Of a DNA stretch of 64,000 nucleotides, positions 640 to 51,357 are shown piece after piece. The first letter of the stretch is position 1; every line of letters begins with the position of its first letter. Origin of the DNA: a virus; IMG/VR virus record IMGVR_UViG_3300046674_000395, positions 23,566-87,565 of that record. One strand, 5' to 3'. Both the position numbers and the translations under genes were made by a program. The notes beneath the pieces are model-generated. The model did not search any database, was not told where the DNA came from, and saw nothing but the letters and a program-made list of their open reading frames with translations.

Positions 640-812
640 CAAAATAAAGTTGATCTTGGGATATCCCCCCAGGTGATCTTGGTCTGCATGATCTTGAAAA
701 GTTTGAATTGGATCAAGGAATTTCAATCCCAATGGATCTTGAGATGATCTCGAACACCTGAACCTTGATCACATCGAACAGTCAATCGACCTTCGCTGAC
801 TGATCACTCAGC
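640..812. repeat. AT-rich (~40% GC) non-coding island with 8 GATC-centred iterons, TGATC(T/A)(T/A)G
   Basis: tgatcttgg 651-659 and 674-682, tgatcttga 689-697, tggatcaagg 709-718, tggatcttga 733-742, tgatctcga 745-753, ccttgatca 763-771 (inverted), tgatcactc 801-809; flanking DNA is >70% GC. Confidence 0.8.
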
Positions 813-1040
813 TCGACGAGTCGACACTGACCATGACCACATCGCCTGCCTCACCCTCGCCTGCCCTCGGCCGGCACGCACCCTGGGTGGGTGGGGTGGG
901 GGCAGCGCCTGCCCTACCCCTACCGCTCCCGGCCGCCGAGGGAGGCGTGCACCAGCAGCCACCCCGTCGCCCGTCCTCCTGGGTGACGGGCCTGACCTCA
1001 GGCCGGCTGACACGGTCGGCTTCGGAGCGACTCGGTTGGC

Positions 1041-1298
1041 CTATCGCCCACGTCCCTTGATCCCTCGGTTGGCCTTCGACCCGGGCCAGATCCCGGTGGC
1101 CTCGTGGAAGCGAAGCGCGCAGTAGCCTTTCGCGCGCGGCCCCATGAAGCGCTGCACCCTGGACACACAGCGCGTGAACGATCCAGAGCGAGGCGCGAAG
1201 CCGATGCCAGCCGCCTTACCTCGACTGGTGGGGCGGTCGCTCCAGTAGCGGCGCCCTTCGCGGACGATGCGGCGGTTGGACTTGGCGCGGCTGGCCAC
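1041..1298 (-). CDS. hypothetical small basic protein (last gene of the leftward operon)
   Basis: 85-aa ORF with strong G/C bias at codon position 3; starts 7 nt after the upstream stop; no recognisable domain. Confidence 0.45.
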   Translation of the reverse strand: MASRAKSNRRIVREGRRYWSDRPTSRGKAAGIGFAPRSGSFTRCVSRVQRFMGPRAKGYCALRFHEATGIWPGSKANRGIKGRGR

Positions 1299-1304
1299 AG
1301 TCGG

Positions 1305-1727
1305 TCACTCCTTCTGCGGCGCGGACTCCTGGCTGACGGGCTCCTGGTCTTCGTCTACCCGTTGGATCTGGGCGCCTAGTCCTGCGGGAATGGCGAGGCA
1401 GATCCCGGCGGCGTCGGTGAAGACTGCCCATCCGTCGGTGACATTGAGGCCGAGGTGGGGGTCTTCGATGAGGACGTCGTCACGCTTCTGGTCGCGCGGG
1501 TGGACGATCAGGTAGGCGGTCACGTGGCGGCGTGCCGAGGGAGCGCCACACCAGGAGCAGCGCGGGTCGAGTCCACGTTGCGCGGCGTGCCGTCCGTGGC
1601 GGTGGAGGTATCGCATCCGAGCGGCATAGAAGCGCGAGTAGGTATCGGAGTACAAGCGGTACAGGCCGCCGTGTTCGCGCTTGAAGCTGGGGACGCGCTC
1701 GTAGCAGAACTGCTGGAGTGCGTTCAC
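1305..1727 (-). CDS. hypothetical protein
   Basis: Internal GTG start at 1727 (residue 62 of track ORF 1305-1910), just downstream of the HNH stop; the region upstream of it is R/P/T-rich and overlaps the HNH gene. Confidence 0.5.
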   Translation of the reverse strand: MNALQQFCYERVPSFKREHGGLYRLYSDTYSRFYAARMRYLHRHGRHAAQRGLDPRCSWCGAPSARRHVTAYLIVHPRDQKRDDVLIEDPHLGLNVTDGWAVFTDAAGICLAIPAGLGAQIQRVDEDQEPVSQESAPQKE

Positions 1728-1743
1728 AGTGCGGGCCTCTCGC

Positions 1744-2037
1744 TCACAGGAGTCCGGGGTGTTGCTCGGGCGGTCGCTTCCGTCCGGCTTGGGGGTTGGC
1801 GCGCTGTGCGTCGTTGCCCTCGGCCGAAGACTTCTGCAGGTGGCAGGGTTCGCAGACTCCTTGTAGGCGATCCTCTGCGTGGTCGTCCGTCTTGGCTTTG
1901 ACGTGGTCACAGTGGCTGGATGGCCGCACGCCGCAGATCTTGCACACCGGGTCGCGGGCGAGCACCTTGGCGCGGATGGTCCGCCAGTTCGACGGGAGCC
2001 GGCCCTTGCGGTCCGAACCCTGCCAGCTGCCGCTCAC
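1744..2037 (-). CDS. HNH endonuclease
   Basis: CKICGVRPSSHCDHVKAKTDDHAEDRLQGVCEPCHLQKS: CxxC...DH...CxxCH HNH zinc-finger nuclease signature. Confidence 0.85.
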   Translation of the reverse strand: MSGSWQGSDRKGRLPSNWRTIRAKVLARDPVCKICGVRPSSHCDHVKAKTDDHAEDRLQGVCEPCHLQKSSAEGNDAQRANPQAGRKRPPEQHPGLL

Positions 2038-2309
2038 GGCTGCGACTTGGCGTTGGGGTCATCCTTCTCGCCGGGTCGCCAGTCCGTGAGGAGTTCCAGG
2101 GTGAGCGTGTAGTCGTCGGGGTCGTAGCCGGTGATCCGGTAGACGACCTGGTCCGCGAGGACGATGTCGCCTGCTTCTACGCGGAGGTAGAGGCCGGGGT
2201 GGGTGAGGAGTCCGACGTCCATCTTGGCCCGCTGGGGAGCGGCGTCGACGGTGACGCCTTTGCCGAGGTGGCGAGTCACTTGCACGTGCCCGTACTCGGT
2301 GCCGCTCAT
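2034..2309 (-). CDS. hypothetical protein
   Basis: 91-aa ORF; ATGA-type overlap with the HNH start; no recognisable domain. Confidence 0.6.
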   Translation of the reverse strand: MSGTEYGHVQVTRHLGKGVTVDAAPQRAKMDVGLLTHPGLYLRVEAGDIVLADQVVYRITGYDPDDYTLTLELLTDWRPGEKDDPNAKSQP

Positions 2310-2311
2310 CG

Positions 2312-2539
2312 CTACTCCTCGGGGCTGCGTTCGGTGTCGCTGCCGAGCGCCCAGTTCGCGAAGCCGGTGCGTTGCCCGAACGGACTGCTGGCGACGACGA
2401 CGCCGTACAGCCGGATGGCGGCCGCTTCGGCCGCATCGAGGGCGCCGTCGCCTTGGGCTTCGATGGTGATCTCGCGGACGCCGTCGCTGAGCTTGACGGT
2501 GACGTCAGGCACGGGGCTGCCCTGCGTCGTCGTGCTCAC
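2312..2539 (-). CDS. hypothetical protein
   Basis: 75-aa ORF; start uncertain (alternative GTG at 2512 reduces the overlap with the upstream gene). Confidence 0.5.
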   Translation of the reverse strand: MSTTTQGSPVPDVTVKLSDGVREITIEAQGDGALDAAEAAAIRLYGVVVASSPFGQRTGFANWALGSDTERSPEE

Positions 2540-2822
2540 TCCGGTACTTGGCGAGGGCTTCGCGAACGCCGTCTTCGCTACTGTCGCTTGAGTCCCACCA
2601 TTCGACGGCTTGCCACAGGTCTGCGAGGCGCCGCATGCGAACTTCGGTGCGGATCGCCCACTGGTTGAGGAGGACCACCAGCTCTTCGGTCTCTTTGGCG
2701 GCGTCGTCTGCGTAGCCGAGTTCGGCGAGCCGGTCGGCCATGGCCTTCAGGGAGTTGCGCCGGGTGAGGAGGTCTTCGAGGTCCACGGCAGCGCACAGGT
2801 AGTTGTAGCTGCCGCCGCTCAT
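2505..2822 (-). CDS. hypothetical protein
   Basis: 105-aa ORF in the operon; overlaps the upstream stop (ATGA at 2819-2822). Confidence 0.6.
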   Translation of the reverse strand: MSGGSYNYLCAAVDLEDLLTRRNSLKAMADRLAELGYADDAAKETEELVVLLNQWAIRTEVRMRRLADLWQAVEWWDSSDSSEDGVREALAKYRSEHDDAGQPRA

Positions 2823-3178
2823 CGCTGGGTTTCCCTGTTCAGGGCGTCGGCAAGTTCTGCTTGCGCCTTGCGGATCTCGTCCTGAACTTGCTCGCGGAAC
2901 TGCTCGAAGTCGGGCTCGACTCGAATCTTCAGCGGATAGCCGTCAGGGTCGACCGGGACTTCATTGGCAGGGATCTCGATGGTCTCGTTGAAGACGAGGA
3001 CTTGTCGTGCGCCGATTTTCTCGGCTACGCCTTCCCATTCGGAGGCGGGGGCTTCCTGATCGGCGCCGAGGATGTAGCGCTGGTACTCGTGCTGGTCGAC
3101 GACGAGCACGAACGGAGTTTCCTCGGTGCCGTCGGGACGCTCGACGGTAGGGAGTTCGAGGATCTGCAGGCGGGCCAT
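2819..3178 (-). CDS. hypothetical acidic protein
   Basis: 119-aa ORF; start overlaps the stop of the upstream gene at 3178. Confidence 0.65.
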   Translation of the reverse strand: MARLQILELPTVERPDGTEETPFVLVVDQHEYQRYILGADQEAPASEWEGVAEKIGARQVLVFNETIEIPANEVPVDPDGYPLKIRVEPDFEQFREQVQDEIRKAQAELADALNRETQR

Positions 3179-3495
3179 CAGCCGACCGCCTTCCCAAGCG
3201 TCGGGAAAGGGCGCCGGGAGTAGTTGGCGCCCGCCCAGGAGATGACCTCTCCGTCGGCGGAGGCGAACACCTCGGGGCCGAGCACCGTGACGTCCCCGTC
3301 CTGGTACGGGTACGCGGCGGCTCCCTTGGTGTCGCCCTCGCGGTGGACGCTGCGCACGTTGGCGACAGGTGCGAGGGCTACGACCTTGCCGTCCTTCACG
3401 AACGTGTAGTCGCAGGCGCTGGAGTCGTATTCGACCCCTTCGGCGTCGACGGTCTCGGTGTTGCCGTCGAGGTAGTTGATCGTGTAGCGGGCCAT
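3178..3495 (-). CDS. hypothetical protein
   Basis: 105-aa ORF directly downstream of the epimerase gene. Confidence 0.65.
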   Translation of the reverse strand: MARYTINYLDGNTETVDAEGVEYDSSACDYTFVKDGKVVALAPVANVRSVHREGDTKGAAAYPYQDGDVTVLGPEVFASADGEVISWAGANYSRRPFPTLGKAVG

Positions 3496-3519
3496 GGCGC
3501 GGGCTCCTGCGGGGTGGGG

Positions 3520-4401
3520 TTAGGTGTTGAGTGCTCGCCTCACGCCTTCTTCCAGCGTGACGGTGGGCACGTAGTGGTCGAGCATCCGGGACGGGTCGCA
3601 GACTCGGTGGTGTACGCCGCGGGGTGCGTCGGCCCGGTGCTTGAGCTGTGGCCGGTAGCCGGCGGCTGTGGTGACGATGCGGGCCAGGTCGTCGAACGAG
3701 GTGGCGCGTCCCCAGCCGAGGTTGACGGGGCCGGTGACGTCCGCGTCGAGGAGGGCGAGGGTGGCGCCGACGAGGTCGTGGATGTGGATCCAGTCGCGTG
3801 TGCTGTCGCCGGATCCCCAGATCTCGAACGGGTCGTCGCGCCGCTTGGCCCGCTGGATGAACGCGGGGAACGGGTAGCAGGGCTCTTGGTCGTCGCCGTA
3901 GCCGCTGAACGGGCGGGGGATGAGGATCCGGCAGCCTTCGGCTTCGGCGTAGGAGGCGAGCTTCTCCCCCGTGAGCTTCGCCCAGCCGTAGCTAGCGTCG
4001 GGCTCTTCCATGTACGCGAGGCTGATGTCCTCTTCGTATAGGCGCCGCACGTCGCCGGGCTGCTGGAGTGCGACCGGGTAGGCCGCTGAGCTGCTGAAGT
4101 AGACGGCACGTGGGGTGCCAGTCCTGATCAACCACCGCATATACCAGGCGTCGAGGGCCAGGTTCGTGCCGACACCGAGGGGACTGCCGTCGATGCTGGC
4201 CCGGCCGCCGACGATGGCCGCGCAATGGATGGCGAGGTCGTACCGTTCCTCGTCGCGGCGGAAGAAGTCGAGGGCGTCACCTTCGAGGACCTGGGGGCCG
4301 GGCTTGAGGTCGATGCCGACCACGAAGTCACCGCGGTCGAGTAGCGCGCGGTGCAGGTGTCGACCGACGAACCCGGACGCGCCGGTGAGGAGGACGCGCA
4401 T
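3520..4401 (-). CDS. NAD-dependent sugar epimerase/dehydratase (extended SDR)
   Basis: Start MRVLLTGASGFVGRHL (GxxGxxG Rossmann motif) at 4401, overlapping the methyltransferase stop; catalytic YGWAK (YxxxK). Confidence 0.85.
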   Translation of the reverse strand: MRVLLTGASGFVGRHLHRALLDRGDFVVGIDLKPGPQVLEGDALDFFRRDEERYDLAIHCAAIVGGRASIDGSPLGVGTNLALDAWYMRWLIRTGTPRAVYFSSSAAYPVALQQPGDVRRLYEEDISLAYMEEPDASYGWAKLTGEKLASYAEAEGCRILIPRPFSGYGDDQEPCYPFPAFIQRAKRRDDPFEIWGSGDSTRDWIHIHDLVGATLALLDADVTGPVNLGWGRATSFDDLARIVTTAAGYRPQLKHRADAPRGVHHRVCDPSRMLDHYVPTVTLEEGVRRALNT

Positions 4402-5000
4402 CAACTGCTCGCCTTCACGGCGCGGTAGACGCCCCACGGGAGTCCGCTGTCGACGGGCTCCAGGCCGAGGGTGGCGCAGGCGTCGGCCTGCTGTTCCTTC
4501 GACCAGGTGGTGACGCCGATCCAGCTGTCGGCCTCGCTGGGCTGGTCGGAGACGGGCCAGTCGAGGACGAGGATCCCGCCGAGCTTGGTCGCGGCCCGCA
4601 GCTTGGCGATGATGTCGAGGCAGTCCGTGTAGCTGTGGTGGATCAGGACAGCAAGGCTGTAGACGGCGTCCATGCGGCGGCGCCCGAGGTGTCGGGCGAT
4701 GCCGTCGGCGTCGGCCAGCACGGTGTCGGCGTCAGGGAGTCGCTCGGCGAGCCGTTCGAGCATCCTCTGCGAGGAGTCGACAGCGGTGACCTCGTAGCCG
4801 TGGACAGCCATGGGGATGGCGACGCGGCCGTCACCGCAACCGAAGTCCATGACCTTCGTCCCGTCGGGGATGACGGTGGCAAGCATCTCCGCCTGAACCT
4901 GGCCAGACTCCCAGTAGGCGTCCTCGGAGACTCGTCGCAGCGGATGGATCGCAGCCGGGTCGGCCTGATCCCAGGCCTGAATGACAGCTTCGGCGGTCAT
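4401..5000 (-). CDS. class I SAM-dependent methyltransferase
   Basis: Motif I VMDFGCGDGRVAIPMA followed by EVTAVDSS; 199 aa. Confidence 0.85.
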   Translation of the reverse strand: MTAEAVIQAWDQADPAAIHPLRRVSEDAYWESGQVQAEMLATVIPDGTKVMDFGCGDGRVAIPMAVHGYEVTAVDSSQRMLERLAERLPDADTVLADADGIARHLGRRRMDAVYSLAVLIHHSYTDCLDIIAKLRAATKLGGILVLDWPVSDQPSEADSWIGVTTWSKEQQADACATLGLEPVDSGLPWGVYRAVKASS

Positions 5001-5707
5001 GCTGCCTCCTCGACGAGCTTCCGCAGCTTGACCAGGTCGGCTTCGAGGCCGCCGTTGTCGCGGTAGTCGTAGTAAGCCGCCGAGTCACTGCTCACCTGCT
5101 CGGGGCTGTTGCACTCCTCGTAGCCCGCATCGACGGCCGCCTTCTGCGCGGCCGGGTGCAGGTGTTCGATGACCATGTCGGGCAGGTACGTGATCCGGCC
5201 CATGCCGCGGCCCCAGTCCAGCCAGCAGAGATCCAGACAGAGGTGGACGAGCGCGGGTGGCGCCATGTAGCCGAGCGTCTCGACGATGTCCGCGGTCATC
5301 GCAACTGCGGTCGGCATCTGCTCGCCCATGAGCAGGTCGTTGCCGTAGACGATGCCGGGCCCGCCCGACAGGCACTCGCGGATGCGGGCGTCCCACGGCA
5401 TCGCCGCGGGACGCGGCCGGTGGTCGTCGCCGAGGAACGCGAGGTACCGGTATGTCTTGGCAGCCTTCACGGCCTGCTGGTTGAGGGTGCCGCACAGGCG
5501 GCGCCGCTTGCCGAACGTGAACCGGATCCGCCCGTCGCCCTTCAGCTCGGCGGCGTGCTTCTTGTACGCGGCGAGTTCCGGGTCGTCGGTGTCGACCGCG
5601 AACAGCAGGTCGGCGGTGGCCTCGGTGTCGTCCCACGCCTGCACGATCTCCGGCACGGCTTGGGGCCGGCCGCGGGTTGGGATGATGACGAGCAGGTCGT
5701 CGGCCAT
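4997..5707 (-). CDS. glycosyltransferase-like protein (GT-A fold)
   Basis: Start MADDLLVIIPTRGRP at 5707; FLGDDH (DxD-type motif). Confidence 0.62.
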   Translation of the reverse strand: MADDLLVIIPTRGRPQAVPEIVQAWDDTEATADLLFAVDTDDPELAAYKKHAAELKGDGRIRFTFGKRRRLCGTLNQQAVKAAKTYRYLAFLGDDHRPRPAAMPWDARIRECLSGGPGIVYGNDLLMGEQMPTAVAMTADIVETLGYMAPPALVHLCLDLCWLDWGRGMGRITYLPDMVIEHLHPAAQKAAVDAGYEECNSPEQVSSDSAAYYDYRDNGGLEADLVKLRKLVEEAA

Positions 5708-5720: not shown

Positions 5721-7565
5721 CTAGGTGAGTGCAACCCAGCGCGAACCGGCGTTCGTGGACTGGGACGCGAGGGTGATCGACGAGGGCAGCGAGGTGTTGC
5801 CGGCCGCGGTGTTGATGAAGCGTGCAGTGCCGACGGTGAGACCCGCGTTCAGGGCTGAAGCGGAAGCTCCGTTGCCCTGGAGAAGCTGCGGCACTGTCCC
5901 CGTACTGACCATCAGGATTGCGACGTAGTACGAGCCCACTGCAAGCGTCTGCGGCGACGTCAGTGCCACCGTCTTCAGGCCCGCTGACGTCCAGTTCGCT
6001 GACTGATCAGCGGATACTGCGAGCCGGTTTCCCGAACTGTCGTACAGGCCTACGAAGTTCTGGCCGGAGGTCATCGAGGTGGGCGTGTTGAGGATCGACA
6101 GGAGGACGTTGGAGACGACGGTGGCCCGGTCCACGATCTTGACCTTGCAGAGGTAGATCGTGCCCGAGGTGATGTTGTCGCCTGTCGACCGGCAGGTGGC
6201 CGGGTCGTGCGTCCAGGTGATCAGGCCTTGGTCCGCGGGCATGGCGGTCGGGTTGTTCGCGGTGCTCAGCGGATATTGGAGCAGTCCCGCCGGCATGGCG
6301 TTGCCGGTGTTGAACGTCGTGATGTCGCGGAGGACGGTGCTGGTCTGCTTCGAGAACGTGACGGTGCCGGATGTGTTGTTCTCGATGCGGATGCGTTCGA
6401 AGATGTTCGGGGTGTTGCTGGTGGTGTTGTTGTCCTCGATGACCTTGCAGGAGCCGCTGGATTCGATGTTGATCCACTTGGCGCTGAAGGTGTTGTTGTA
6501 GCTGTTCGTACCGCAGACGAACATCTTGTTCCCGGACTGACCGGAGTCGCAGGTCACGTAGTTGCAGTAGAACTCGTTGCTCTCGCCGTTGGCGACCTCG
6601 ATGCCGGTCTTGAACTGCTCTAGGTTCAGGCCGTAGAACCGCTGACTGGCTGTACCGGCCGTGCCGCCGAGGTAGATGCCGGTGCAGGCGGCCCCGTTCG
6701 CTCCCGCCTCGAACATGATCCAGTCGTTCTGGTTCATGTTGCCGTCGATGGAGTCGACGTAGAGGCCGTACCCGTCGGTGCCGACAATCTCGACGAAGAT
6801 CCGGTTGAACGTGCAGTCGCCTGCGTTCTGGACGGCGGAGTTGTTGATGAGCTGGATGCCGTTGCGGGTGCCCTCGATCTCGATGTTCTCGAAGACCGAG
6901 CGCCACGGCATGTCCAGCCACATGCCGTAGGTGTTGCTGGTGCCGACGAACCCGCCGTTGATCCGCAGGTTCTTGAACGAGCTGTGCCAGAAAGACAGCG
7001 TGTCCCCGGAGGTGACACCCGCCGAGACGATGCCGCGGCCCGACCCGGAGATGAAAATGCACAGGTCGGAGATGTGTACCTGCGCCCAGTTCGAGATCGT
7101 GATCCCGTAGACGCCGGACGCTGCGGTGATCTCCGTGACCTGCTGACCGCACCCCCGCAGCGTGACCGTCTTCGGGTCGTTCTCGTCGACGGTGCCGTTG
7201 ATCGTGATCGTGGCAGAGATGTTGAAGGACCCCTGCGACAGCTGGACGATGCCGCCGCCCTCGGCCTGTGCGTCGTCGATGGCCTGCTGGATCTGCACCT
7301 GGTCGGCGACGCCGTCACACACGTAGTCGGCGGCGTCCCGGATCCTGCTGGGCGCGCCCGCCGCAGCGACGGTGCGATAGGTGAGCGCCCTGCCGCCCCC
7401 TCCGGCCGGTTCGGCCCCAACGTCCTCGTAGGTGATCTCGACGCTGCCGGTCTTGCCGTTGACGGAGAAGACGCTGCCGCCACCGACATCCAGAATGCGG
7501 GACGGCTGCCCGCCAGTGACGCTGATGCTGTTCGGCTGGGGTCCGCCGGTGACCTGGATTTTCAC
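5721..7565 (-). CDS. tailspike/depolymerase-like protein with right-handed parallel beta-helix (pectate-lyase-like) domain
   Basis: GTG start at 7565 (GTGA overlap with upstream stop), 614 aa. Periodic N/G/I/V-rich coils (ITISNWAQVHISDLCIFISGSG..., IEIEGTRNGIQLINNSAVQN...). The first ~137 aa of track ORF 5721-7976 are R/P-rich off-gene sequence. Confidence 0.72.
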   Translation of the reverse strand: MKIQVTGGPQPNSISVTGGQPSRILDVGGGSVFSVNGKTGSVEITYEDVGAEPAGGGGRALTYRTVAAAGAPSRIRDAADYVCDGVADQVQIQQAIDDAQAEGGGIVQLSQGSFNISATITINGTVDENDPKTVTLRGCGQQVTEITAASGVYGITISNWAQVHISDLCIFISGSGRGIVSAGVTSGDTLSFWHSSFKNLRINGGFVGTSNTYGMWLDMPWRSVFENIEIEGTRNGIQLINNSAVQNAGDCTFNRIFVEIVGTDGYGLYVDSIDGNMNQNDWIMFEAGANGAACTGIYLGGTAGTASQRFYGLNLEQFKTGIEVANGESNEFYCNYVTCDSGQSGNKMFVCGTNSYNNTFSAKWINIESSGSCKVIEDNNTTSNTPNIFERIRIENNTSGTVTFSKQTSTVLRDITTFNTGNAMPAGLLQYPLSTANNPTAMPADQGLITWTHDPATCRSTGDNITSGTIYLCKVKIVDRATVVSNVLLSILNTPTSMTSGQNFVGLYDSSGNRLAVSADQSANWTSAGLKTVALTSPQTLAVGSYYVAILMVSTGTVPQLLQGNGASASALNAGLTVGTARFINTAAGNTSLPSSITLASQSTNAGSRWVALT

Positions 7566-8677: not shown

Positions 8678-8687
8678 GACGCCTCCC

Positions 8688-9074: not shown

Positions 9075-9088
9075 CGGACTCGCCTCCT

Positions 9089-10872: not shown

Positions 10873-10916
10873 GGGCCCTCCCCGTCAGGGCGTCACGCCG
10901 CCTGCGGGTTGGCGAG

Positions 10917-13014: not shown

Positions 13015-13140
13015 GGCAGGCTCCTCGGGTGGTGCGGGGAAGCGGTGACGCAACAAGCCAATTGTGCACCCGAGGGCTTGACACGGCGGGCCAATGGCAT
13101 AGCAGAAGCCCACCCGGTGATATCGGGCGGGCTTCTACGG

Positions 13141-37667: not shown

Positions 37668-37677
37668 GCATGGCAAC

Positions 37678-37931: not shown

Positions 37932-37946
37932 TTGGTCATGTCCGGG

Positions 37947-41335: not shown

Positions 41336-41404
41336 GGTTCGTGGTCTCCTGGTTCCGGGAGCCGCCGCAGGTTCGGGCCGCGGCGGCTCCCGATCGGGGT
41401 TGGG

Positions 41405-43766: not shown

Positions 43767-43897
43767 CAGTCGTTCTCCGCGGGGACGAGGCGCTCGCAGT
43801 CCTCGCACAGGCCGTCGAGAACGAACGGGCCGATCTCGTCTTCGCAGCGGGTGCAACGCAGGGGCCCCGTCTGCCTCGTGGTGCTGTCGGTGCTCAT
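43766..43897 (-). CDS. possible 43-aa zinc-ribbon peptide
   Basis: Own translation MSTDSTTRQTGPLRCTRCEDEIGPFVLDGLCEDCERLVPAEND; stop overlaps the exonuclease ATG. Confidence 0.42.
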   Translation of the reverse strand: MSTDSTTRQTGPLRCTRCEDEIGPFVLDGLCEDCERLVPAEND

Positions 43898-44057
43898 GGT
43901 TCTCCGTTTCTGGGTGCACTGATGGCGGGCCGCCGCCCGCGGACGGGGGGTGTGCCGCGAGCGGCGGCCCTGGGTGGCCGCGGAGTTGGGGGGACTCGAC
44001 GCGACCGGTCTGTGCGGTGGTGAGTAGTGCGGTGTTGAGGAGTTGATCGATCGGCAG

Positions 44058-44591
44058 TCAGTCGGCGTCGGCGAGGGCGGCGACGCGGTTGTGGGCGTCG
44101 TTGAACTCCTCGGTGTCGAGGCCCATCCACGGCACGCGGTGCGACATTGCGATGAGGACGTCCAGGGCGTTGAAGCCGTCGGCCTTGAACTCGGCTGCCG
44201 CGGCCTCGATGTCCGCGTCGGTGTACGTGCCGTTGTGGGAGACGTCGCCGCGCAGGTAGTCGTGGCTGTGGACCGGACCGCAGTGCGCGTTGCCGAGGGC
44301 CGACAGCACCCGGCTGTGGTCGATCTCCCCGTTGAGGTCGTCGACGTCGCGGGTCCAGTCGTAGAGCGGGGCGATCGCCGCGGCTCCGGTCATCGCGAAC
44401 TCGCGGGTCATGGCTTCGGCGACGACGAGGCCGGAGTGGTGGCCGATGTCCCAGCGGGCCGGATTGTTCAGGTCGAGGTCGCCAGGGACGCGGAACACGA
44501 CCAGGCCGGGCGCTACCTGTACAGCGCCGGTGACCTCGTAGGACTGGCCCTTTCGGCCGCGCATCGTGTAGGCGACGGTGTCGACAGACAT
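44058..44591 (-). CDS. hypothetical protein
   Basis: 177-aa ORF. Confidence 0.6.
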   Translation of the reverse strand: MSVDTVAYTMRGRKGQSYEVTGAVQVAPGLVVFRVPGDLDLNNPARWDIGHHSGLVVAEAMTREFAMTGAAAIAPLYDWTRDVDDLNGEIDHSRVLSALGNAHCGPVHSHDYLRGDVSHNGTYTDADIEAAAAEFKADGFNALDVLIAMSHRVPWMGLDTEEFNDAHNRVAALADAD

Positions 44592-44701
44592 GGGGTTTCC
44601 CTTCCGTGGGATGCTGATCTCGGATCCCCGCCGACTTCACTTCGGCGGGGGTTCTGCTTTTCACCTGCCGCCCGACCTCCTCGGCCGGGCGGCAGGGAGC
44701 T

Positions 44702-45217
44702 TCAGGTGGTGACGTGGGCGCCGATGATGGGGATCTGCTGGGTGTCGGCGTTCGAGCCGTCCGGGACGCGGCCGGGGTCGGTGACGGCCAGCGGTGAGGC
44801 GCCGAGACGGACCGGACTGCCCGCCTCGAACCGGTCGGCCGGCGGCGTGACGGGTCCCTGATGGGCCAGCGGGATGACGGAGTTGACGTTGTCCCTGAAG
44901 GAGCGCAGCGCCACCAGCTCGGCCGTCTGCACGGCGAGCAGTTGCTCAGCTGCCGCGGCCCGCGCTTCGGCCTCGTCGTACCGTCCAGCCTTGGCGTTCA
45001 CCTCGGCGCGGATCTGCTTCGCCTCGGCCAGCTGCTCGCGGAGGCTGCGGATCGTGCGAGCCTGCCCATCGAAGCGGGACTCCAGCGCCGCGGCCTGCTC
45101 GGCGCGGGGCGTCAGCTCCCGCACCTGGCGCTCCGCCTCACCGAGGAGATGGTGCAGTTCGCGGCAGGACAGGCCGCGGTGGGAGATGACGCTGCGGACG
45201 GTGTCGACAGTGCTCAC
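44702..45217 (-). CDS. hypothetical coiled-coil protein
   Basis: 171-aa ORF, heptad-like E/A/R/L-rich centre. Confidence 0.6.
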   Translation of the reverse strand: MSTVDTVRSVISHRGLSCRELHHLLGEAERQVRELTPRAEQAAALESRFDGQARTIRSLREQLAEAKQIRAEVNAKAGRYDEAEARAAAAEQLLAVQTAELVALRSFRDNVNSVIPLAHQGPVTPPADRFEAGSPVRLGASPLAVTDPGRVPDGSNADTQQIPIIGAHVTT

Positions 45218-45399
45218 GACCGGCTCTCCCCGATCACGTCGAGGGCGAGGCGCACCGTGTGCCGGGCGTCGGGGCCGGCCGGGCGTCGGGCTCCGGACAG
45301 GTCGGCGGCCGTGTCGATGTCGACGGTGGTCGCCGCGTCGGAGTCCAGGCCGTGGCCGGCGAGGGTCCGGGCCGTCAGGTAGGCGTCGAAGGCGGTCAC
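45214..45399 (-). CDS. hypothetical small protein
   Basis: 61 aa; GTG start. Confidence 0.48.
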   Translation of the reverse strand: MTAFDAYLTARTLAGHGLDSDAATTVDIDTAADLSGARRPAGPDARHTVRLALDVIGESRS

Positions 45400-45557
45400 G
45401 GCCGGTCTCCTTTCAGATGCTGCTGCTGATCGATGAGGGCGGCGAGCTCCCGCTGCAAGTCCGTGATGGCGGCTGATGCGAGGCGGATGTAGTGGAGGCG
45501 GAGGGCATTGGCGAAACCCGCGATCGGCGACAGGCGCGTCGGAAGCGGGGTGCTCAC
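45396..45557 (-). CDS. possible 53-aa protein
   Basis: Own translation VSTPLPTRLSPIAGFANALRLHYIRLASAAITDLQRELAALIDQQQHL...; 4-nt overlaps on both sides. Confidence 0.4.
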   Translation of the reverse strand: MSTPLPTRLSPIAGFANALRLHYIRLASAAITDLQRELAALIDQQQHLKGDRP

Positions 45558-45709
45558 GGGGCCGGCTCCCGGCTAAGTCGGGCGCACAGTGCCTCGTAGC
45601 TCTCCTCCGGCTCGTCGTCCTCGTCGGGCGGGTAGCCGAGCCAGGCCGCGATCCCGGGGACGACGAGGCCCTTGTCGGGGAGGGCGCGGAGGTCGATGAC
45701 GGCGGCCAT
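45554..45709 (-). CDS. possible 51-aa protein
   Basis: ATG 45709 (MAAVIDLRALPDKG...). Confidence 0.4.
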   Translation of the reverse strand: MAAVIDLRALPDKGLVVPGIAAWLGYPPDEDDEPEESYEALCARLSREPAP

Positions 45710-45900
45710 CAGGCGGCCCACCTTTCCTGCCAGCGGCGGAAGTTGCGGTAGCGGGCGTGGACGGCGTCGATACGGTCGAGGTACTCGGTCGTCGTCCACG
45801 GCTTGGCGCCCTTCGCGCGCCGAGCCCACTCCAGCTCGACGGCGGCCAGCGACTCCTCCTCCAAGTCCTCCAGCCGGCGAGGCTCGATCGCGGTGTTCAT
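45709..45900 (-). CDS. hypothetical small protein
   Basis: 63-aa ORF. Confidence 0.5.
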   Translation of the reverse strand: MNTAIEPRRLEDLEEESLAAVELEWARRAKGAKPWTTTEYLDRIDAVHARYRNFRRWQERWAA

Positions 45901-46274
45901 GCGGCCACCTCGCGGGCGGTGCGCTCGAAGACCGCGATGACGTCGGCCGGGGTGCGGTCATCGGCGTCGTTCCATCCCGCCAGTCGCATTACGGCCGGCT
46001 CCCCCTGGAAGCCGTACAGGTGGAGGTTGTCGATGCGGGCGTTCACGCGGGAGACAGCCACATCGAACTCGGCTCGGCCGTCCGATCCCTCGCGAGGCGG
46101 GACCGGGTCGCCGAACATGACGACCGACAAGGCGCCCCCCGCGCACACCGGGAACTCGGCGCGCGTCCGCTCGATACCGACGCCTGTCTCGGGGGTGCGG
46201 TAGAAGTCGCCCTTGGCGTGTCCGTTCAACACGATGACCTCGGCGGCCTTCAGGTAGATCTCGGAGAGAGTCAC
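45897..46274 (-). CDS. hypothetical protein
   Basis: GTG 46274; 125 aa. Confidence 0.52.
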   Translation of the reverse strand: MTLSEIYLKAAEVIVLNGHAKGDFYRTPETGVGIERTRAEFPVCAGGALSVVMFGDPVPPREGSDGRAEFDVAVSRVNARIDNLHLYGFQGEPAVMRLAGWNDADDRTPADVIAVFERTAREVAA

Positions 46275-46534
46275 GAGGCGCCTCCAGGCGTCCAGTTCGG
46301 GTAGTCCGCTTCCGTGGAGACCGGGGCCTCCGGGTGGGTGATCAGCCAGGCGTCGAGGGCGTAGGCGATGCGGTCCGACGGGGAGTTGCTGTGGTCGGCC
46401 GCCTCGGCGAGAAGCCGGCAGGCCCGCTGCCGGGCGACCAGCTGCTTCATGTCGGCGGCCAGCGTCGACAGCGGCACGTCGGCCCGCTCGATACGCGGCG
46501 GCGGGGACTGGAAGCGCTTCGGGGTGAAGGTCAT
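46271..46534 (-). CDS. hypothetical protein
   Basis: ATG 46534 (MTFTPKRFQSPPP...), 87 aa. Confidence 0.5.
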   Translation of the reverse strand: MTFTPKRFQSPPPRIERADVPLSTLAADMKQLVARQRACRLLAEAADHSNSPSDRIAYALDAWLITHPEAPVSTEADYPNWTPGGAS

Positions 46535-46737
46535 CGGGGTGTCCCCCAGTTCGCGTTCGGGTGGCTGCACGGGTTGTCGTCGTGGCCGCCGAAACAGCCG
46601 GCCTCACACGCCGCGCAGTCCGGGCACCAGCGGGCCGGGAGGTCACCGCACGCCTTGCACGCGCCCACCAGGTCGGCGGTCAGCGGGATGCCCTGCTCGG
46701 CAATCGCGGCAGCGAGGCGGGGGTTGACTGCGGTCAT
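46531..46737 (-). CDS. small Cys-rich protein
   Basis: ATG 46737; CKACGDLPARWCPDCAACEAGC. Confidence 0.5.
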   Translation of the reverse strand: MTAVNPRLAAAIAEQGIPLTADLVGACKACGDLPARWCPDCAACEAGCFGGHDDNPCSHPNANWGTPR

Positions 46738-47216
46738 GCCGTCACCGCCGCGTGCTTGCAGGGCCAACGGTTGCCGCACGCGCACCAGTGGCATCCGTCC
46801 GCCGGGTCCGGCACCTTGTCGTAGTGCTGTGACTCGGGGGCCTGCCCGGCTTCGGCATCCTCGGTCCAGCCGCCGTGAGTCCAGTCATCCGGGTCGAGGG
46901 CGGTCGGATACCAGCCGTGGATGTCGTGGGCGGGCCCGTACATCCAGCCGAGCGCGCGACGTTCACCGGTGCCAGGGCTGGGGCTGATGGCCTCGCAGCG
47001 GAACTCCCGCGTGCCGCTGGTGTAGTTGCGGTCGACCTCGAAGAAGCCGGGGTCGGGCAGCATCCGCAGGTTGTTGGGGCGGACAGCACCACGGCTGATC
47101 TTGGATGCAATCACCGCCACCGTGTCGGCCTGCGCTCGGCCCTCGCGGGTACCCTCGGCGCGAAACTCGCGGGCCTTCTTCACCAGCCACGCAGTGACCT
47201 CGGGGTAGTTGCTCAT
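46734..47216 (-). CDS. hypothetical protein
   Basis: ATG 47216 (MSNYPEVTAWLVKK...); C-terminal CHWCACGNRWPCKH. Confidence 0.55.
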   Translation of the reverse strand: MSNYPEVTAWLVKKAREFRAEGTREGRAQADTVAVIASKISRGAVRPNNLRMLPDPGFFEVDRNYTSGTREFRCEAISPSPGTGERRALGWMYGPAHDIHGWYPTALDPDDWTHGGWTEDAEAGQAPESQHYDKVPDPADGCHWCACGNRWPCKHAAVTA

Positions 47217-48013
47217 GCCACACCGCCGTTCCTGCGCTGCTGCGGGAGGCGGACGACCTGTGCACCCGGCAGTGCCGGCCGGTTCCTCGACGGCAGGCCA
47301 TCGCGCTCCAGCGCGTCGTGGATCTCCTGACGCAACTTGTCGCGGCCTGTGGTCAAGCACTCGCGGAGCCGCTCGGCCGCCTTCGCGTGAAGGTCTTCGA
47401 GGACGAGGGAGTCCTGCTGCAGGTTCACAAACTCGACTACGTGCGCCTTGATCTGCTCATGGACAGCAGGTGAGAGCTGGCGCACCTCGTTCTCACTCAG
47501 TCCGAAGTAGTCGCCGAGCAGGGCTCGCTCGCGAGCGGTGCCCTCAGGAGCGGGGAGAGACACCCGCTCTGGCAGCAAGATCGATCGGCCATCGAGCAGT
47601 GCCATCAGGCTGCGGCGCTGCGCTGCCGTTGCCCGCTGCGTGCGCTCGTGCTCTTCGCGGTCGCCGCGCAGAAACTCCAGCGAGGACGCGTAGTCGCGGA
47701 CCGTCTCGAAGGGGATTCCCGTGAAGTACTCGCGTCCGCCGGAGTTCCTCGCACGCTTGGCGCAGAAGCCGATCAGAGCTGTTTCGTTCTTGATCGCCCC
47801 CGCATGAGGTCCTGAAAGCCAGGTGTGTACTAGCGGGTTGCCATAGGCCTCGCCGTGGTGCTTGTGCAGCCCGATGCGCCGGTCTGGCGCGGCGGTGCGA
47901 CCGACTTTCACAATGCCGGACTCGAACCCGAGCACGTAGATGTGGGCTTCAACGCCTTTGATCAGGGGGGCGTCGAACGGACTTGATCCGTCCGATGGGA
48001 TGATGGAGGACAA
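47213..48013 (-). CDS. T5orf172 (GIY-YIG-like, MUG113-type) domain protein
   Basis: HIYVLGFESGIVKVGRTAAPDRRI...NETALIGFCAKRARNSGGREYFTGIPFETV; paralogous to the N-terminal half of 53437-54069. Confidence 0.72.
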   Translation of the reverse strand: MSSIIPSDGSSPFDAPLIKGVEAHIYVLGFESGIVKVGRTAAPDRRIGLHKHHGEAYGNPLVHTWLSGPHAGAIKNETALIGFCAKRARNSGGREYFTGIPFETVRDYASSLEFLRGDREEHERTQRATAAQRRSLMALLDGRSILLPERVSLPAPEGTARERALLGDYFGLSENEVRQLSPAVHEQIKAHVVEFVNLQQDSLVLEDLHAKAAERLRECLTTGRDKLRQEIHDALERDGLPSRNRPALPGAQVVRLPQQRRNGGVA

Positions 48014-48101
48014 CGGGGTCCCCTTTCTTCTCAGTGGTGAAGGTGGATCTCGATCGAGGTCGTCCCGGACTGGCGAGTTACGGGGCGGCCTCTTTGCCGC
48101 T

Positions 48102-48386
48102 CTAAGCGGCGACGCGGGCCGGCTGCCGACGCGGTTCGGCGGGGCGGGACTCCCGGAGTCGCGTGGGGTCCGGCGCCATGGCGGCCTGGTACTGGCCTTC
48201 GAGGTAGGCGTCGAGGTCCGCGATGCGGTAGGCGATGAAGCGCCCGATGGGGAAGCCCTTGGGTCCCTTGCCCTTGACGCGCCACTTGCGGAGCGTTGCG
48301 AGGGTGACGCCGATTCGGATGGCGGCGTCTTCGATCCAGAGGCACCCTTCGGGCGCCCGCTGCTTCGGTCCCTTCCTGTTGTGCAT
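48102..48386 (-). CDS. xis: excisionase/AlpA-type HTH protein
   Basis: ATG 48386; CLWIEDAAIRIGVTLATLRKWRVKGKGPKGFPIGRFIAYRIADLDAYL. Confidence 0.75.
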   Translation of the reverse strand: MHNRKGPKQRAPEGCLWIEDAAIRIGVTLATLRKWRVKGKGPKGFPIGRFIAYRIADLDAYLEGQYQAAMAPDPTRLRESRPAEPRRQPARVAA

Positions 48387-48816: not shown

Positions 48817-48916
48817 CCAGAAGGAGATGGTTGTACGGCGTGACCTGCTATTTTCCCGGCGCCAATCACTACACATAGAGACAGTCGGTGCGAACGTGAC
48901 GCGAGAGGACGACGAC

Positions 48917-49354
48917 ATGACAGTCCCGGCCAAAGCTCCGGAGTCCGGCGCGGCGGAACAGGCGTCAGACGTCGGGGCGCTCTCCCAGCTCATCCAGGAA
49001 GCGCTCGACAAGGGCGACTCCTACCAGCGCCTCGCCGACCGGGCCATCGACCCCGAAACCGGCGAGACCGTCTCCAAGCCCTACCTCCAGCGCATCGTGA
49101 AGACTCCGCCCGTGAACCCGCCGACGCCGCCCATGATGGGCGCGATCGCGGCGGCCCTCGGCAAGCCCCTGTGGCGCATCAAGGAAGCCGTCGCCAAACA
49201 GTGGCTGCTGTACGAGGCGACAGAACTCGCCGGCTACGACGCCGAGGTGCGCATCATCGTCGGACACCTCGCCGGCAAGTCGAAGGCGGAGCTGATGAAG
49301 TGGCGCTACATGATCGAGGCGGACGAGCGGGCGCGGCGCGAGGCCGGCGAGTAG
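48917..49354 (+). CDS. immunity repressor-like HTH protein
   Basis: ATG 48917 behind GAGAGGA; SYQRLADRAIDPETGETVSKPYLQRIV is an HTH; position next to int, divergent from the early operon. Confidence 0.68.
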   Translation: MTVPAKAPESGAAEQASDVGALSQLIQEALDKGDSYQRLADRAIDPETGETVSKPYLQRIVKTPPVNPPTPPMMGAIAAALGKPLWRIKEAVAKQWLLYEATELAGYDAEVRIIVGHLAGKSKAELMKWRYMIEADERARREAGE

Positions 49355-49509
49355 CGCATCGCCCGCCGGACTTCGTCCCGTGATCACGAATGTCCGTAAG
49401 TAGACTTTGCTTCAACTGATTGTCGAACACTCCCTGTAGACGTACCCTTCACCAACCGTGCACTTCTGGCCGTTCTGGCGCGTTGTGCATCGTGCGCTAG
49501 GAGGGCCGG

Positions 49510-49953
49510 ATGCTGGACGTCACCTATGAGGCCGTCGAAGACCTCCCGCCAGGCAGACTGGCGACGATCGAGGAAGACCGCGGGAAGATCCGCGTCAAGG
49601 TCGATGCGACGGAGCCGCTCGCGTCCGTCGTCCGCCAACTCAACGTCGAGATCGACCGGTTGCTGACCAGCTCGGATTGGTTCCAACTGTGGGGCGACGA
49701 GATCGTCAGCCGCAGTACACCCGCCTCTCCCCTGCGGATCGAATACGTACTTCACCGACTGGTGCCCGACACGGCCATCCTCACCGAGAGCAAGGGCTGC
49801 GTTCGCGTCCACATCGACCCCGCCCTCAGCACCGAAGAGTTCGCCGCGGTGATGAATCCGGCCACGAAGGACATCCTCGCCGGGGGACAGTGGTTCCAGC
49901 TGTACGGCGGCGAGATCATCGACAACTCGCCGGAGCCCATCACTCGGGTCTGA
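49510..49953 (+). CDS. hypothetical protein made of two ~70-aa internal repeats
   Basis: The halves align: ...IRVKVDATEPLASVV...DWFQLWGDEIVSRS versus ...VRVHIDPALSTEEFA...QWFQLYGGEIIDNS. Confidence 0.6.
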   Translation: MLDVTYEAVEDLPPGRLATIEEDRGKIRVKVDATEPLASVVRQLNVEIDRLLTSSDWFQLWGDEIVSRSTPASPLRIEYVLHRLVPDTAILTESKGCVRVHIDPALSTEEFAAVMNPATKDILAGGQWFQLYGGEIIDNSPEPITRV

Positions 49954-49968
49954 CGAACGGGGGCGGCG

Positions 49969-51357
49969 GTGGCGGGGTACATCGAAGACCGCTGGATGAC
50001 GAGGAAAGCGGATCCAGCGACCGGCAAGAAGCGTCGGACCGCACGCTGGGGGCAGGGGAAGCGTTGGCGGGTCGCCGGCGTCCCTGGCGTGCGGGACCGG
50101 TCCTTCACCAACCTCAAGGGCCCTGACGGGGCTGAGAAGTGGCTAGCCGACTCGCAGACGGATACGAGCCGCGGCCACTTCTACGATCCACGCGACGGCA
50201 ACATCACGCTGCGGGAGTACGTCGAGCAGACGTGGTGGCCGACGCTGCGGAAGGCGCCCGGCACCAAGCAGTCGATGAAGCCTCGGGTCTTCAATCACAT
50301 CCTTCCCCACGTGGGGCATCTGTCGCTGAACCGGATCGGGCACGACGAGATCCGGGTCTGGCTCACCCGGGTCGAGCAGGACATCGACGTGAACACGGTG
50401 CGCACGACGTGGCGCCATTTCTCGACGATCATGCAGGCGGCGCACAAGGCCAAGAGGATTGCCGAGAACCCGTTCAGGGATGAGGACTTGTCGGCGCCGG
50501 CGGCGCCTCCGTCCAAGGCGAAGGCGTGGCCCAGGGAGACAGCTGCTGCGGTGCGGGCCGAGTTGGGTCCCCGGTACGGGATCCTTGTGGACCTCGCTAC
50601 CGGGGCCGGGCTGCGGCAGGGGGAGTGCTTCGGCTTCTCGCCGGACGACATCGACGGCGACGAGATCCATGTGACCCGTCAGATCGTGCGGATCAATAGC
50701 CGTCTGGCGTTCGCGCCTCCGAAGCGCGGCAAGCTCCGCGACGCACCCTGCCCTCCGGAACTGGCCCGCGCCGTCAAGGAGTACGCGAATGTCTTCCCGA
50801 CGGTCGAGGTGACGCTGCCCTGGGTGGACCCGGACCGGCCGAACCTGGAGTGGGACAAGCGTCCCCTGCGGACTGTACGTCTCCTTGTGACCACACCCAG
50901 GACCGGCGGAGTCAGCGGCGGCGCACTGAACCGGGCGACGTGGGACGACAAGGCGTGGAAGCCGGCGCTCGCCCGTGCGGGCGTCATCCCGGAGCCCGAG
51001 GTCGAGTACGTGCAGGCGAACGGGAAGAAGCCGTGGCGCCGGGTGGCGTGGCGGATGCCGCGGGAGGACGGCTTCCACGTCACGCGGCATACGTTCGCTA
51101 GCATCGTGCTGTCGGAGGGTGAGACAATCACTCAGCTGGCTGCGTGGCTCGGTCACTCGGATCCGGCGTTCACGCTGAGGACTTACGTGCACTTCATGCC
51201 GAAGTCCGGGAAGCGGGCGCTGGCTGCGCTCGGCTCGTGGATGTCCCCAGGTGGGGGCGGGACCCGAGCCGCTGAGGCCGATCAGGCTGTTGAGATCTCT
51301 CCCGGTTCTGATTCTCCCCAGATTCTCCCCAGCGAAGATCTGGATCAAGGAATCTAG
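49969..51357 (+). CDS. int: tyrosine integrase (phage/AICE type)
   Basis: GTG start; N-terminal YIEDRW...DPATGKKR arm-binding type; catalytic GLRQGE (R), HVTRHTFAS (HxxR), LGHSDPAFTLRTYVH (H...Y). Track ORF 50143-52107 is an antisense artefact. Confidence 0.93.
   Translation: MAGYIEDRWMTRKADPATGKKRRTARWGQGKRWRVAGVPGVRDRSFTNLKGPDGAEKWLADSQTDTSRGHFYDPRDGNITLREYVEQTWWPTLRKAPGTKQSMKPRVFNHILPHVGHLSLNRIGHDEIRVWLTRVEQDIDVNTVRTTWRHFSTIMQAAHKAKRIAENPFRDEDLSAPAAPPSKAKAWPRETAAAVRAELGPRYGILVDLATGAGLRQGECFGFSPDDIDGDEIHVTRQIVRINSRLAFAPPKRGKLRDAPCPPELARAVKEYANVFPTVEVTLPWVDPDRPNLEWDKRPLRTVRLLVTTPRTGGVSGGALNRATWDDKAWKPALARAGVIPEPEVEYVQANGKKPWRRVAWRMPREDGFHVTRHTFASIVLSEGETITQLAAWLGHSDPAFTLRTYVHFMPKSGKRALAALGSWMSPGGGGTRAAEADQAVEISPGSDSPQILPSEDLDQGI

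Follow-up and report, generated by a model that had tools for sequence, protein, structure and literature searches.

A TraB-like transfer module of plasmid type within an integrated Streptomyces-type temperate phage

The Streptomyces plasmid-phage pZL12/phiZL12 (GQ919031), said to have been described by Zhong et al. 2010 (J Bacteriol 192:3747), has been reported both to form virions and to transfer conjugally. Streptomyces plasmids such as pSVH1 and pIJ101 encode TraB, a membrane-associated, FtsK-like hexameric motor, and carry 8-bp repeats beside its gene; this TraB/clt system, in which clt is the cis-acting transfer locus, is reportedly the work of Reuther 2006, Vogelmann 2011 and Thoma & Muth 2012. 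Integrative and conjugative elements of actinomycetes (AICEs) are ~9-24 kb in size, are not known to carry virion genes and replicate via RepSA, RepAM or prim-pol. They encode a tyrosine integrase, an Xis-like protein, a GntR-type Kor regulator and small membrane proteins, contain clt-like repeats, and use a single FtsK-like Tra protein that acts on double-stranded DNA (2008, PMC2440964; Ghinet et al. 2011, PMC3218068). As outlined in PMC3583192, which also gives background on the cis-acting transfer locus of Streptomyces plasmids, conjugal transfer of pZL12 needs its main tra gene together with two genes next to it, and pZL12 is introduced in PMC4487206 as a well characterised plasmid with phage-particle genes. 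Here we analyze a 64,000-nucleotide stretch of a soil metagenome contig (IMG/VR record IMGVR_UViG_3300046674_000395, positions 23,566 to 87,565; hereafter the window), in which an integrated temperate phage carries a transfer module of the plasmid/AICE type.

Positions 1 to ~51,400 of the window are the integrase-proximal two thirds of an integrated Streptomyces-type temperate tailed phage, of which >56 kb has been seen and whose full length we estimate by analogy at ~70-75 kb. The window has a GC content of ~68%, at which raw open reading frame (ORF) lists are useless, and genes were called by third-position GC (GC3); the products of all GC3-supported ORFs between 1 and 53 kb were scanned with Pfam and PHROGs. 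A scan for sigma-70 promoters and T-tail terminators was uninformative at this base composition. A preliminary description, made from the letters of the window, had read the locus as a phage/AICE chimera that ends at position 709 and holds a conjugation module where the morphogenesis genes should be. It could assign no ORF to a terminase, portal, major capsid, tape measure, endolysin or holin, and our profile scans likewise matched no ORF of the window to any of these families. However, an exact-protein look-up of the HNH endonuclease gene (1744-2037, minus strand; PHROG 333, E=2e-26) retrieved contig L001, which matches window positions 1-3506 at 100% identity and extends 5,253 bp further to the left. 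This extension contains, in order, the rest of a prim-pol gene, a Terminase_7 terS, terL (584 aa; PHROG 9, E=2e-67), an SPP1-type portal gene (PHROG 104, E=5e-139), a head maturation protease gene and the start of a scaffold gene, and the run of packaging and head genes starts ~0.75 kb outside the left edge. Position 709 lies in an AT-rich intergenic stretch and is not an end of the element, as the phage-type prim-pol gene (3-473, minus strand; the N-terminal 157 codons of 208 aa; PHROG 8643, E=8e-42, and Pfam Prim-Pol) leaves the window at its left edge. The apparent exchange of virion genes for a conjugation module is thus an edge artefact, because the window cuts the element; head and tail genes had been expected between the early operon and the fibre genes because the fibres were assumed to end the structural operon.

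Read along the minus strand, the gene order is: integrase; early recombination and replication genes; cargo and tnpB; a GntR-controlled TraB module; conserved small genes; accessory fibres with a glycosylation cassette; HNH; an AT-rich site; prim-pol; terS; terL; portal; protease; and scaffold. The element combines an integrase at one end and a lysogeny/early module (Xis-like, RecT/exonuclease and replication genes) with a large terminase and a portal, which lie on L001 outside the window. Two of the three readings offered previously, that an AICE replaced the morphogenesis genes of a prophage or that the locus is a helper-dependent satellite, are refuted by L001, since genes for terS, terL, portal, protease and scaffold are part of the element itself. 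The remaining reading, a functional hybrid that spreads by TraB conjugation, survives in modified form; the other role it assigned to the fibre proteins falls away, as the hybrid keeps its virion module. The view of the locus as a phage genome with an actinomycete transfer module is supported, and the supposed lack of virion genes is not. The observations named in advance as decisive against it were largely made: morphogenesis genes exist, beyond the window, and relatives possess a normal structural module, whereas att repeats flanking 11.4-28.5 kb were not found. The claim that no element of this architecture had been described does not stand either, as the layout is also that of pZL12/phiZL12.

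Beyond the packaging and first head genes seen on L001, the rest of the head genes and the tail and lysis genes of the element would, to judge from relatives, also be situated left of the window edge. In the TraB-bearing relative L060, portal, protease, scaffold, major capsid protein, head closure, tail terminator, major tail protein, chaperone and tape measure genes are all present, and the plasmid NZ_CP108705.1 likewise has major capsid, tail tube and tape measure genes, plus an amidase gene. A portal-anchored metagenome scan for a further leftward extension of the exact element yielded only relatives of <=91% identity, and a protease homologue search returned only a 93% cluster representative. 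The AT-rich stretch beyond HNH (640-830, minus strand) contains four CAAGATC repeats at 652-741, out of 15 copies in the whole window versus 4.9 expected. Two independent metagenome contigs stop there (L002 at 601 and JGI Ga0495594_0000427 at 636), while L001 bridges it; the 600-830 region could be a packaging (cos) site, a late promoter or other late-regulatory site, or a variable junction at which prim-pol is present or absent. A dip to low GC upstream of terS is also seen in many relatives. Comparison of the integrase side with the left end of the window for att-type direct repeats gave only short imperfect matches, so that att sites were not found, and no tRNA gene that might serve as integration target is present in the window.

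The centre of the transfer module is a gene at 17826-19889 (minus strand) for a 687-aa TraB-like DNA translocase of the FtsK family (PHROG 1358, E=9e-20). The protein contains a Walker A motif at G327-S335 (GGLPDYGKS), a Walker B motif at 434-439 (LLIVDE) and a QRP motif at 494-496, as in the Streptomyces TraB family, and residues G333/K334, E439 and Q494-R495-P496 are invariant among 26 homologues. It is 26-34% identical to FtsK/SpoIIIE proteins of 55 actinomycete plasmids, whereas a tblastn search of 50,697 deposited phage records gave no match at E<=1e-5. An AF2 model built on the 26 homologues (pLDDT 78.5) retrieves FtsK motor domains as its top Foldseek hits (E=4e-14), followed by the conjugative coupling protein TcpA; the FtsK structures 6t8o, 2iut and 2ius are matched at E of about 1e-13. 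The model thus shows an FtsK motor fold with intact ATPase motifs. The FtsK label of the preliminary description was borne out by this route, through PHROGs, plasmid homologues and the structure model, which were needed because Pfam was silent. As regards the N-terminal membrane anchor of the Streptomyces TraB family and its C-terminal winged helix, which binds 8-bp repeats, the protein has a hydrophobic stretch at residues ~120-160 and is modeled as helical at 600-686.

A repeat array that looks like the cis-acting transfer locus of Streptomyces plasmids is located at 17670-17816, in a 222-bp spacer that follows immediately on the stop codon of traB. It comprises five copies of CGACCGGG, three in one orientation and two in the other, and corresponds to the clt-like repeats noted earlier. 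The heptamer GACCGGG occurs here five times in 147 bp, as compared to 36 times in the whole 64 kb (Poisson P ~3e-8; corrected P, 1e-5), meaning that such an array would arise by chance about once per 1e5 windows. The recognition sequence of pSVH1 is GACCCGGA, and its counterpart in the element would be CGACCGGG. Relatives share the position of the array: of 13 scanned loci in prophage context, most have 4-8 copies of the heptamer there and two have 2, and 2-6 copies follow traB in eight of nine AICE-like loci. The combination of an FtsK/SpoIIIE-type Tra protein with a clt-like locus that is characteristic of AICEs is present, with the motor fold seen in the model and the array conserved in relatives.

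The module is preceded by a gene for a GntR/HutC-type regulator with winged helix-turn-helix and UTRA domains (23516-24307, minus strand; Pfam GntR, E=3e-15; UTRA, E=7e-16), which by analogy appears to correspond to the Kor/TraR repressors that Streptomyces plasmids and AICEs encode; gntR genes also adjoin the module in AICE-like relatives and the tra locus in pZL12. A palindrome, ACTTGGATATCCATGT (23378-23401), is located in the interval that separates gntR from the leading gene of the tra operon and is a candidate GntR operator. Related sites occur at 24318-24362, and TACTTGGATA is found three times in 24320-24464. Palindromes of the ACTTGGATATCC type are positioned both upstream of gntR and where the tra operon starts, an arrangement that fits Kor-type control of a neighbouring tra operon, as in AICEs. 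The operon begins with a gene for an HTH_17 DNA-binding protein (23083-23337, minus strand), which belongs to a run of small ORFs (21197-23337, minus strand) that includes a protein with two transmembrane segments (2-TM; 21393-21605). Next comes a 423-aa coiled-coil, multi-pass membrane protein (19886-21157, minus strand), which is conserved upstream of traB in relatives; its gene and traB are probably translationally coupled, because their stop and start codons overlap, and its product is a putative TraB partner. The DUF2637 label given to it previously was rejected, as the Pfam match reaches 15.2 bits against a gathering cut-off of 22.8 (E=0.02) and none of nine homologues matches the family. 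Downstream of traB on the minus strand are genes for a 119-aa protein (17244-17603), two paralogous 63-aa proteins (16819-17201), a DUF6197 protein (16214-16681; Pfam E=5e-15), a lipoprotein with a lipobox (15636-16109) and a membrane protein (15235-15588). These genes (15235-17603) are syntenic with traB in both prophage and AICE-like relatives and are candidates for Spd-like spreading functions. A second DUF6197 paralogue is encoded in the early operon (45897-46274), and a DUF6197 gene follows TraB in relatives too. Taken together, GntR, membrane protein, TraB-like motor, clt-like repeats and the Spd-like and lipoprotein genes support the assignment of this region as a transfer module of the plasmid/AICE type.

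The module recurs in related prophages. TraB homologues of 76-84% identity are encoded on nine IMG/VR viral contigs, and homologues of 54-84% identity in chromosomal contigs of six Streptomyces genomes, where the neighbours of the module (2-TM protein, membrane protein, TraB, o035, 63-aa proteins and DUF6197) are kept. Streptomyces sp. NBC_01384 (NZ_CP109559.1, around 8.00 Mb) and Streptomyces sp. NPDC048521 are examples of strains with a related prophage. On five IMG/VR contigs and at one genome locus, terL and portal lie <=10 kb downstream of traB on the same strand; a subset of these six loci also gave matches to HNH and terS. Overall, at least ten related Streptomyces prophages hold the module in this slot, upstream of the packaging genes, and more divergent FtsK-like genes (24-32% identity) fill this region in six further family members. 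On the two contigs for which both were seen, TraB and the packaging genes have diverged equally, at ~77-79% identity for both: the contig behind L004/L060 has TraB at 77%, TerL at 77-78% and terS at 80%, and that behind L010/L083/L151 has TraB at 77%, TerL at 79% and terS at 77%. In relatives, the early genes o054, o055 and o022 run towards the module on the same strand with no break, separated from it by 5-7 kb of unassigned sequence. Within 11.4-28.5 kb of the window, Pfam and PHROGs detect neither an integrase nor a replication gene, and no direct repeat >=20 bp flanks this segment. Judged by these sequence comparisons, the TraB module appears to be an integral, vertically inherited and stable part of this phage lineage, and neither a replacement nor a recent nested island.

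A second group of TraB homologues, 58-63% identical over residues 181-687, is found in chromosomal elements that carry divergent GntR genes, homologues of the membrane protein and of o035, a helicase and a recombinase, and have no terminase within 10 kb. These elements look like AICEs, and the module is therefore common to AICE-like elements and this phage lineage. In one of them, L157 (1-1645, 9269-11536), a 548-aa ORF with a relaxase-like HxHxH motif recognised by eye is situated a few kb from the TraB module; a candidate relaxase beside a double-strand translocase would be unusual. Separately, three JGI contigs from different samples (L094, L095 and L097), each matching the window at 100% identity, begin exactly at position 21838, inside a small ORF (21697-21894) whose homologue is placed differently in relatives, which suggests that 21838 is a strain-variable junction.

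The closest described counterpart is pZL12, which like the element joins a tailed-phage genome to a Streptomyces FtsK-type tra locus in one replicon. In its GenBank annotation, a divergent GntR gene (pZL12.80), a membrane protein gene (73c), a gene for a 766-aa protein (72c) and an FtsK/SpoIIIE-like gene (71c) are positioned directly upstream of the packaging/structural operon. The tra slot and gene order of the element match this arrangement; the resemblance is one of analogy and not of homology at the BLAST level. BLASTP comparison of the TraB and membrane proteins with the pZL12-type tra proteins of NZ_CP108705.1 found no similarity, and the terminase and portal of pZL12 itself do not match those of the element. 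Whereas pZL12 is an extrachromosomal circular plasmid with ParAB, the element has a tyrosine integrase, shows no match to ParA/ParB across 1-53 kb, and replicates with a predicted initiator/DnaC/DnaB-type module unlike that of pZL12; its relatives reside in chromosomal contigs of up to 10 Mb. pZL12 packages by headful. Because there is no TraB BLAST similarity and no ParAB, an integrase is present and the relatives are chromosomal, we regard the element, on present sequence comparisons, as an integrative variant of an element type that is already known and not, strictly speaking, as belonging to the pZL12 family.

Of the pZL12-like plasmids considered (pSLE1, NZ_CP108705.1 and NZ_CP109578.1), the latter two are circular and encode a TerL that is 85% identical to that of the element. 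NZ_CP108705.1 shares terS, TerL, portal, HNH, o022 and o020 with it at 41-85% identity (portal, 82%). This 88-kb circular plasmid is a mosaic that holds the pZL12 tra locus (71c 88%, 72c 67% and 73c 59% identical), ParAB and a type III polyketide synthase, and its terminase and portal (85% and 82%) belong to the family of the element and not to that of pZL12. Two seemingly unrelated FtsK-type tra loci have thus apparently been joined to the same structural module, once in a plasmid-prophage and once in an integrated prophage.

The other described systems share parts of this plan. Like AICEs, the element has a tyrosine integrase with an Xis-like protein, a GntR-type Kor candidate, clt-like repeats, small membrane proteins and a single FtsK-like Tra protein, 58-63% identical to those of AICE-like chromosomal elements. 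In contrast to AICEs, it is estimated at ~70 kb instead of conforming to their size and Int/Rep/Tra core without virion genes, it encodes a terminase, a portal and phage-type replication and recombination genes, and its relatives possess a full head/tail set. With pSVH1 and pIJ101 it shares the FtsK-like motor and the adjacent repeats, but its TraB is only 26-34% identical to plasmid TraB proteins. The virulent Streptomyces phages Jaresh, AndoPrime, Mandalore and Naboo also encode an FtsK-family ATPase; their FtsK/SpoIIIE-like genes show no sequence match to the TraB of the element at E<=1e-5, and the text of the two papers describing them mentions neither a Kor-type regulator nor a clt for these genes. 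Prophage genes and conjugative transfer are combined in other elements and tandems as well. Those systems are known to use single-strand transfer of the relaxase/type IV secretion type, or to have arisen by accretion of two separate elements, whereas in the present case one phage genome incorporates a double-strand translocase that consists of a single protein. By sequence, the element appears to have no close isolated phage relative; apart from a minor-tail match of 1.4 kb and a 58-bp match attributable to chance, nucleotide searches of the window against deposited phages found nothing.

The likely explanation of these data is that the element is a temperate phage with an integral TraB module that spreads both by virions and by TraB transfer. 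In the lysogen, the GntR protein would repress the tra operon. After derepression and excision by Int and Xis, the circular double-stranded genome would replicate from the initiator/DnaC/DnaB module, and a TraB hexamer assembled on the CGACCGGG repeats would pump it into neighbouring hyphae, which is how Streptomyces plasmids, AICEs and pZL12 operate. The membrane protein, the lipoprotein and the other small membrane proteins would assist, including during passage across septa. Full lytic induction would instead lead to packaging of the genome into virions via HNH and terminase, so that two horizontal routes would be available; we presume that the left third of the element is intact. More tentatively, it is possible, if still doubtful, that a widespread lineage of integrated Streptomyces temperate phages is bimodal in this sense (a 'conjugative prophage'), forming virions and transferring by TraB/clt, with an AICE-type module that has co-evolved with the phage and is not hitch-hiking.

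Several points weigh against the proposal of a phage with two routes of spread. The Pfam FtsK_SpoIIIE profile (PF01580) does not match TraB, neither a single-sequence nor a profile search of PDB sequences with TraB gave a significant match, and TraB has no BLAST similarity to the pZL12 tra protein 71c, placing it in a different FtsK lineage. The function of the module in this lineage is predicted from sequence and models, and the Spd roles and the GntR operator assignment are likewise putative. The exact element was recovered only 5.25 kb past the window; its capsid, tail, tape-measure and lysis genes and attL are postulated from relatives, and this copy could be defective. The source is a soil metagenome, so a Streptomyces host is presumed from homologues. 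Finally, FtsK/SpoIIIE-like genes have been reported in virulent Streptomyces phages, which cannot be conjugative elements. This last point leads to the principal alternative, which we consider rather unlikely: that the translocase and its partners serve the phage itself, moving replicating phage genomes across hyphal cross-walls while infection proceeds, segregating the prophage into spores, or acting in superinfection exclusion. It is in keeping with the recognition of PHROG 1358 as a family of phage FtsK-like proteins and with the co-orientation and co-inheritance of the module with phage operons. Yet TraB finds its matches among plasmid TraB-type proteins and not among the 50,697 phage genomes, the entire module including clt-like repeats and GntR is common to AICE-like elements that have no phage genes nearby, and intramycelial spread is already a part of the known plasmid TraB/Spd function.

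The remaining alternatives concern the history and state of this copy. That it is a decaying, non-inducible prophage, in which the TraB module and clt appear conserved only because decay is recent, strikes us as improbable. The tnpB insertion and opposite-strand cargo do break the long minus-strand operon, and the left third of the element falls outside the recovered sequence; on the other hand, none of the large ORFs examined is shortened by comparison with its homologues, several metagenome samples contain the identical sequence, and contig ends at the candidate packaging site would fit free linear genomes, although this last point is weak. Even less probable is a recent nested insertion of an AICE into a resident prophage as an independent passenger. 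The closest non-phage relatives of the module are AICE-like, one side of it is bounded by a strong hairpin and a solo tnpB, and three metagenome assemblies break at 21838, but the segment has no integrase, replication gene or att-type direct repeats, and the shared slot in at least ten related prophages, the equal divergence of TraB and TerL (~77-79%) and the unbroken run of o054, o055 and o022 towards the module in relatives speak against a recent arrival. Least credible of all is that the morphogenesis genes were lost to an AICE or that the element is a helper-dependent satellite: this idea accounts for a 64-kb window without a structural gene, but terS, terL, portal, protease and scaffold lie immediately to the left on a 100% identical contig, and module-bearing relatives have full head and tail operons.

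Downstream of the TraB module, the element continues into conserved small phage genes (11612-15228), among them genes for an excisionase-like DNA-binding protein (11612-11854) and a zinc-ribbon protein (12295-13056; PHROG 1467/908), homologues of which adjoin HNH/terS in the pZL12-like plasmid NZ_CP108705.1. The fibre block that follows (5721-11315, minus strand; PHROGs 11699, 14726, 14065, 240 and 2804) encodes two proteins with a Gp80 domain (10917-11315 and 8688-9092; Pfam E=5e-22 and 8e-20 for the pair), a 500-aa repeat-rich minor tail protein (9370-10872), the product of a small ORF (9089-9376), a minor tail protein (7562-8677) and a 614-aa fibre or spike (5721-7565). One gene of this block is 74% identical at the nucleotide level to a minor tail gene of phage Frankenweenie. 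The adjoining minus-strand glycosylation cassette consists of genes for a glycosyltransferase (4997-5707), an S-adenosylmethionine (SAM) methyltransferase (4401-5000) and an NAD-dependent epimerase (3520-4404), all assigned by Pfam/PHROGs. To examine synteny in this arm, window proteins were mapped onto 132 loci anchored on TerL (IMG/VR) or portal (metagenomes). Dozens of these loci share the order Gp80 fibre and minor tail o014, glycosylation cassette, small genes, HNH, (prim-pol), terS, terL, portal and protease; prim-pol was found in 51 of the 132 and HNH in 50, in each of which it is just upstream of terS/terL, identifying it as the terminase-accompanying kind in this family. Homologues of the fibre block are likewise positioned upstream of HNH/terminase in relatives, and the cassette (3520-5707) lies upstream of HNH in 14-17 related loci. 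Because the same order recurs in dozens of loci, accessory fibres and a glycosylation cassette just ahead of the packaging genes appear to be a family trait and the normal right arm of these phages. A family-4 glycosyltransferase gene directly follows the major capsid gene in L060 (15541-16578) and in NZ_CP108705.1 (77325-78314); this capsid-adjacent gene and the fibre cassette hint that virion proteins of the phage family are glycosylated.

On the integrase side of the module, a cargo and insertion zone (24367-28501) contains a PNPOx-like gene (24367-24696, minus strand) and, on the plus strand, two ORFs (24997-25705), a solo tnpB (25797-27269) and a further ORF (27956-28501). The tnpB gene is an IS605-family OrfB without tnpA, and a structured region (27270-27340, z = -2.6) directly follows it. 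A strong bidirectional hairpin (28509-28542; -37.6 kcal/mol, z = -5.2) separates the convergent genes that end at 28501 and 28576, and the hairpin proposed previously at this site is thus real. The early operon for recombination, replication and regulation (28576-48386, minus strand) begins with an Xis-like HTH_17 protein (48102-48386) and encodes, all on the minus strand, an exonuclease VIII/DUF3799 protein (42909-43766), a RecT-like protein (42046-42912), WhiB (39483-39875), Dcm (38126-39073), an HTH_36 initiator (36599-37501) with tandem in-gene repeats (iterons, 36952-37091), a DnaC-like protein (35880-36602), DnaB (34501-35883), a DUF4326 protein (33662-34042) and a LuxR protein (29741-29989). 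The Pfam and PHROGs scans confirm most of the gene content listed in the preliminary description, namely integrase, RecT/exonuclease, WhiB, Dcm, the initiator with in-gene iterons, DnaC/DnaB, TnpB, GntR, an FtsK-like ATPase, fibres, glycosylation cassette and HNH; its repressor/Cro pair received weak matches only.

The tyrosine integrase gene (49969-51357, plus strand; PHROG 1, E=4e-37, and Pfam Phage_integrase) is followed by a terminator hairpin (51359-51386), and the prophage has its right end here, although no attR was located. Within the 3' end of the integrase gene, CAGATTCTCCCC occurs twice (51318 and 51329) and it is found again at 51567, and an array of four copies of GTGGAGACGG is present at 51479-51518; these sites could be integrase arm sites or att-related, and no partner for them was found, as the opposite end of the element is off-window. 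Further to the right (51600-64000) lie genes for GntR-domain proteins (53073-53315 and 53425-54069), DUF6415 and HTH_3 regulators, as well as a second tyrosine recombinase (59360-60472, minus strand), a gene set that is probably a separate neighbouring integrated element or remnant.

These findings identify a TraB-clt module of the AICE/plasmid type as a stable and recurrent part of a family of integrated Streptomyces prophages, a combination that previously rested essentially on one studied element, pZL12. The lineage offers a tractable system in which the function of traB and clt can be tested in lysogens. If the module works, it would provide these phages with a second, lysis-free route of transmission suited to a mycelial host, and the line between prophages and AICEs would be blurred, which matters for how tools that detect prophages and integrative and conjugative elements classify such loci.

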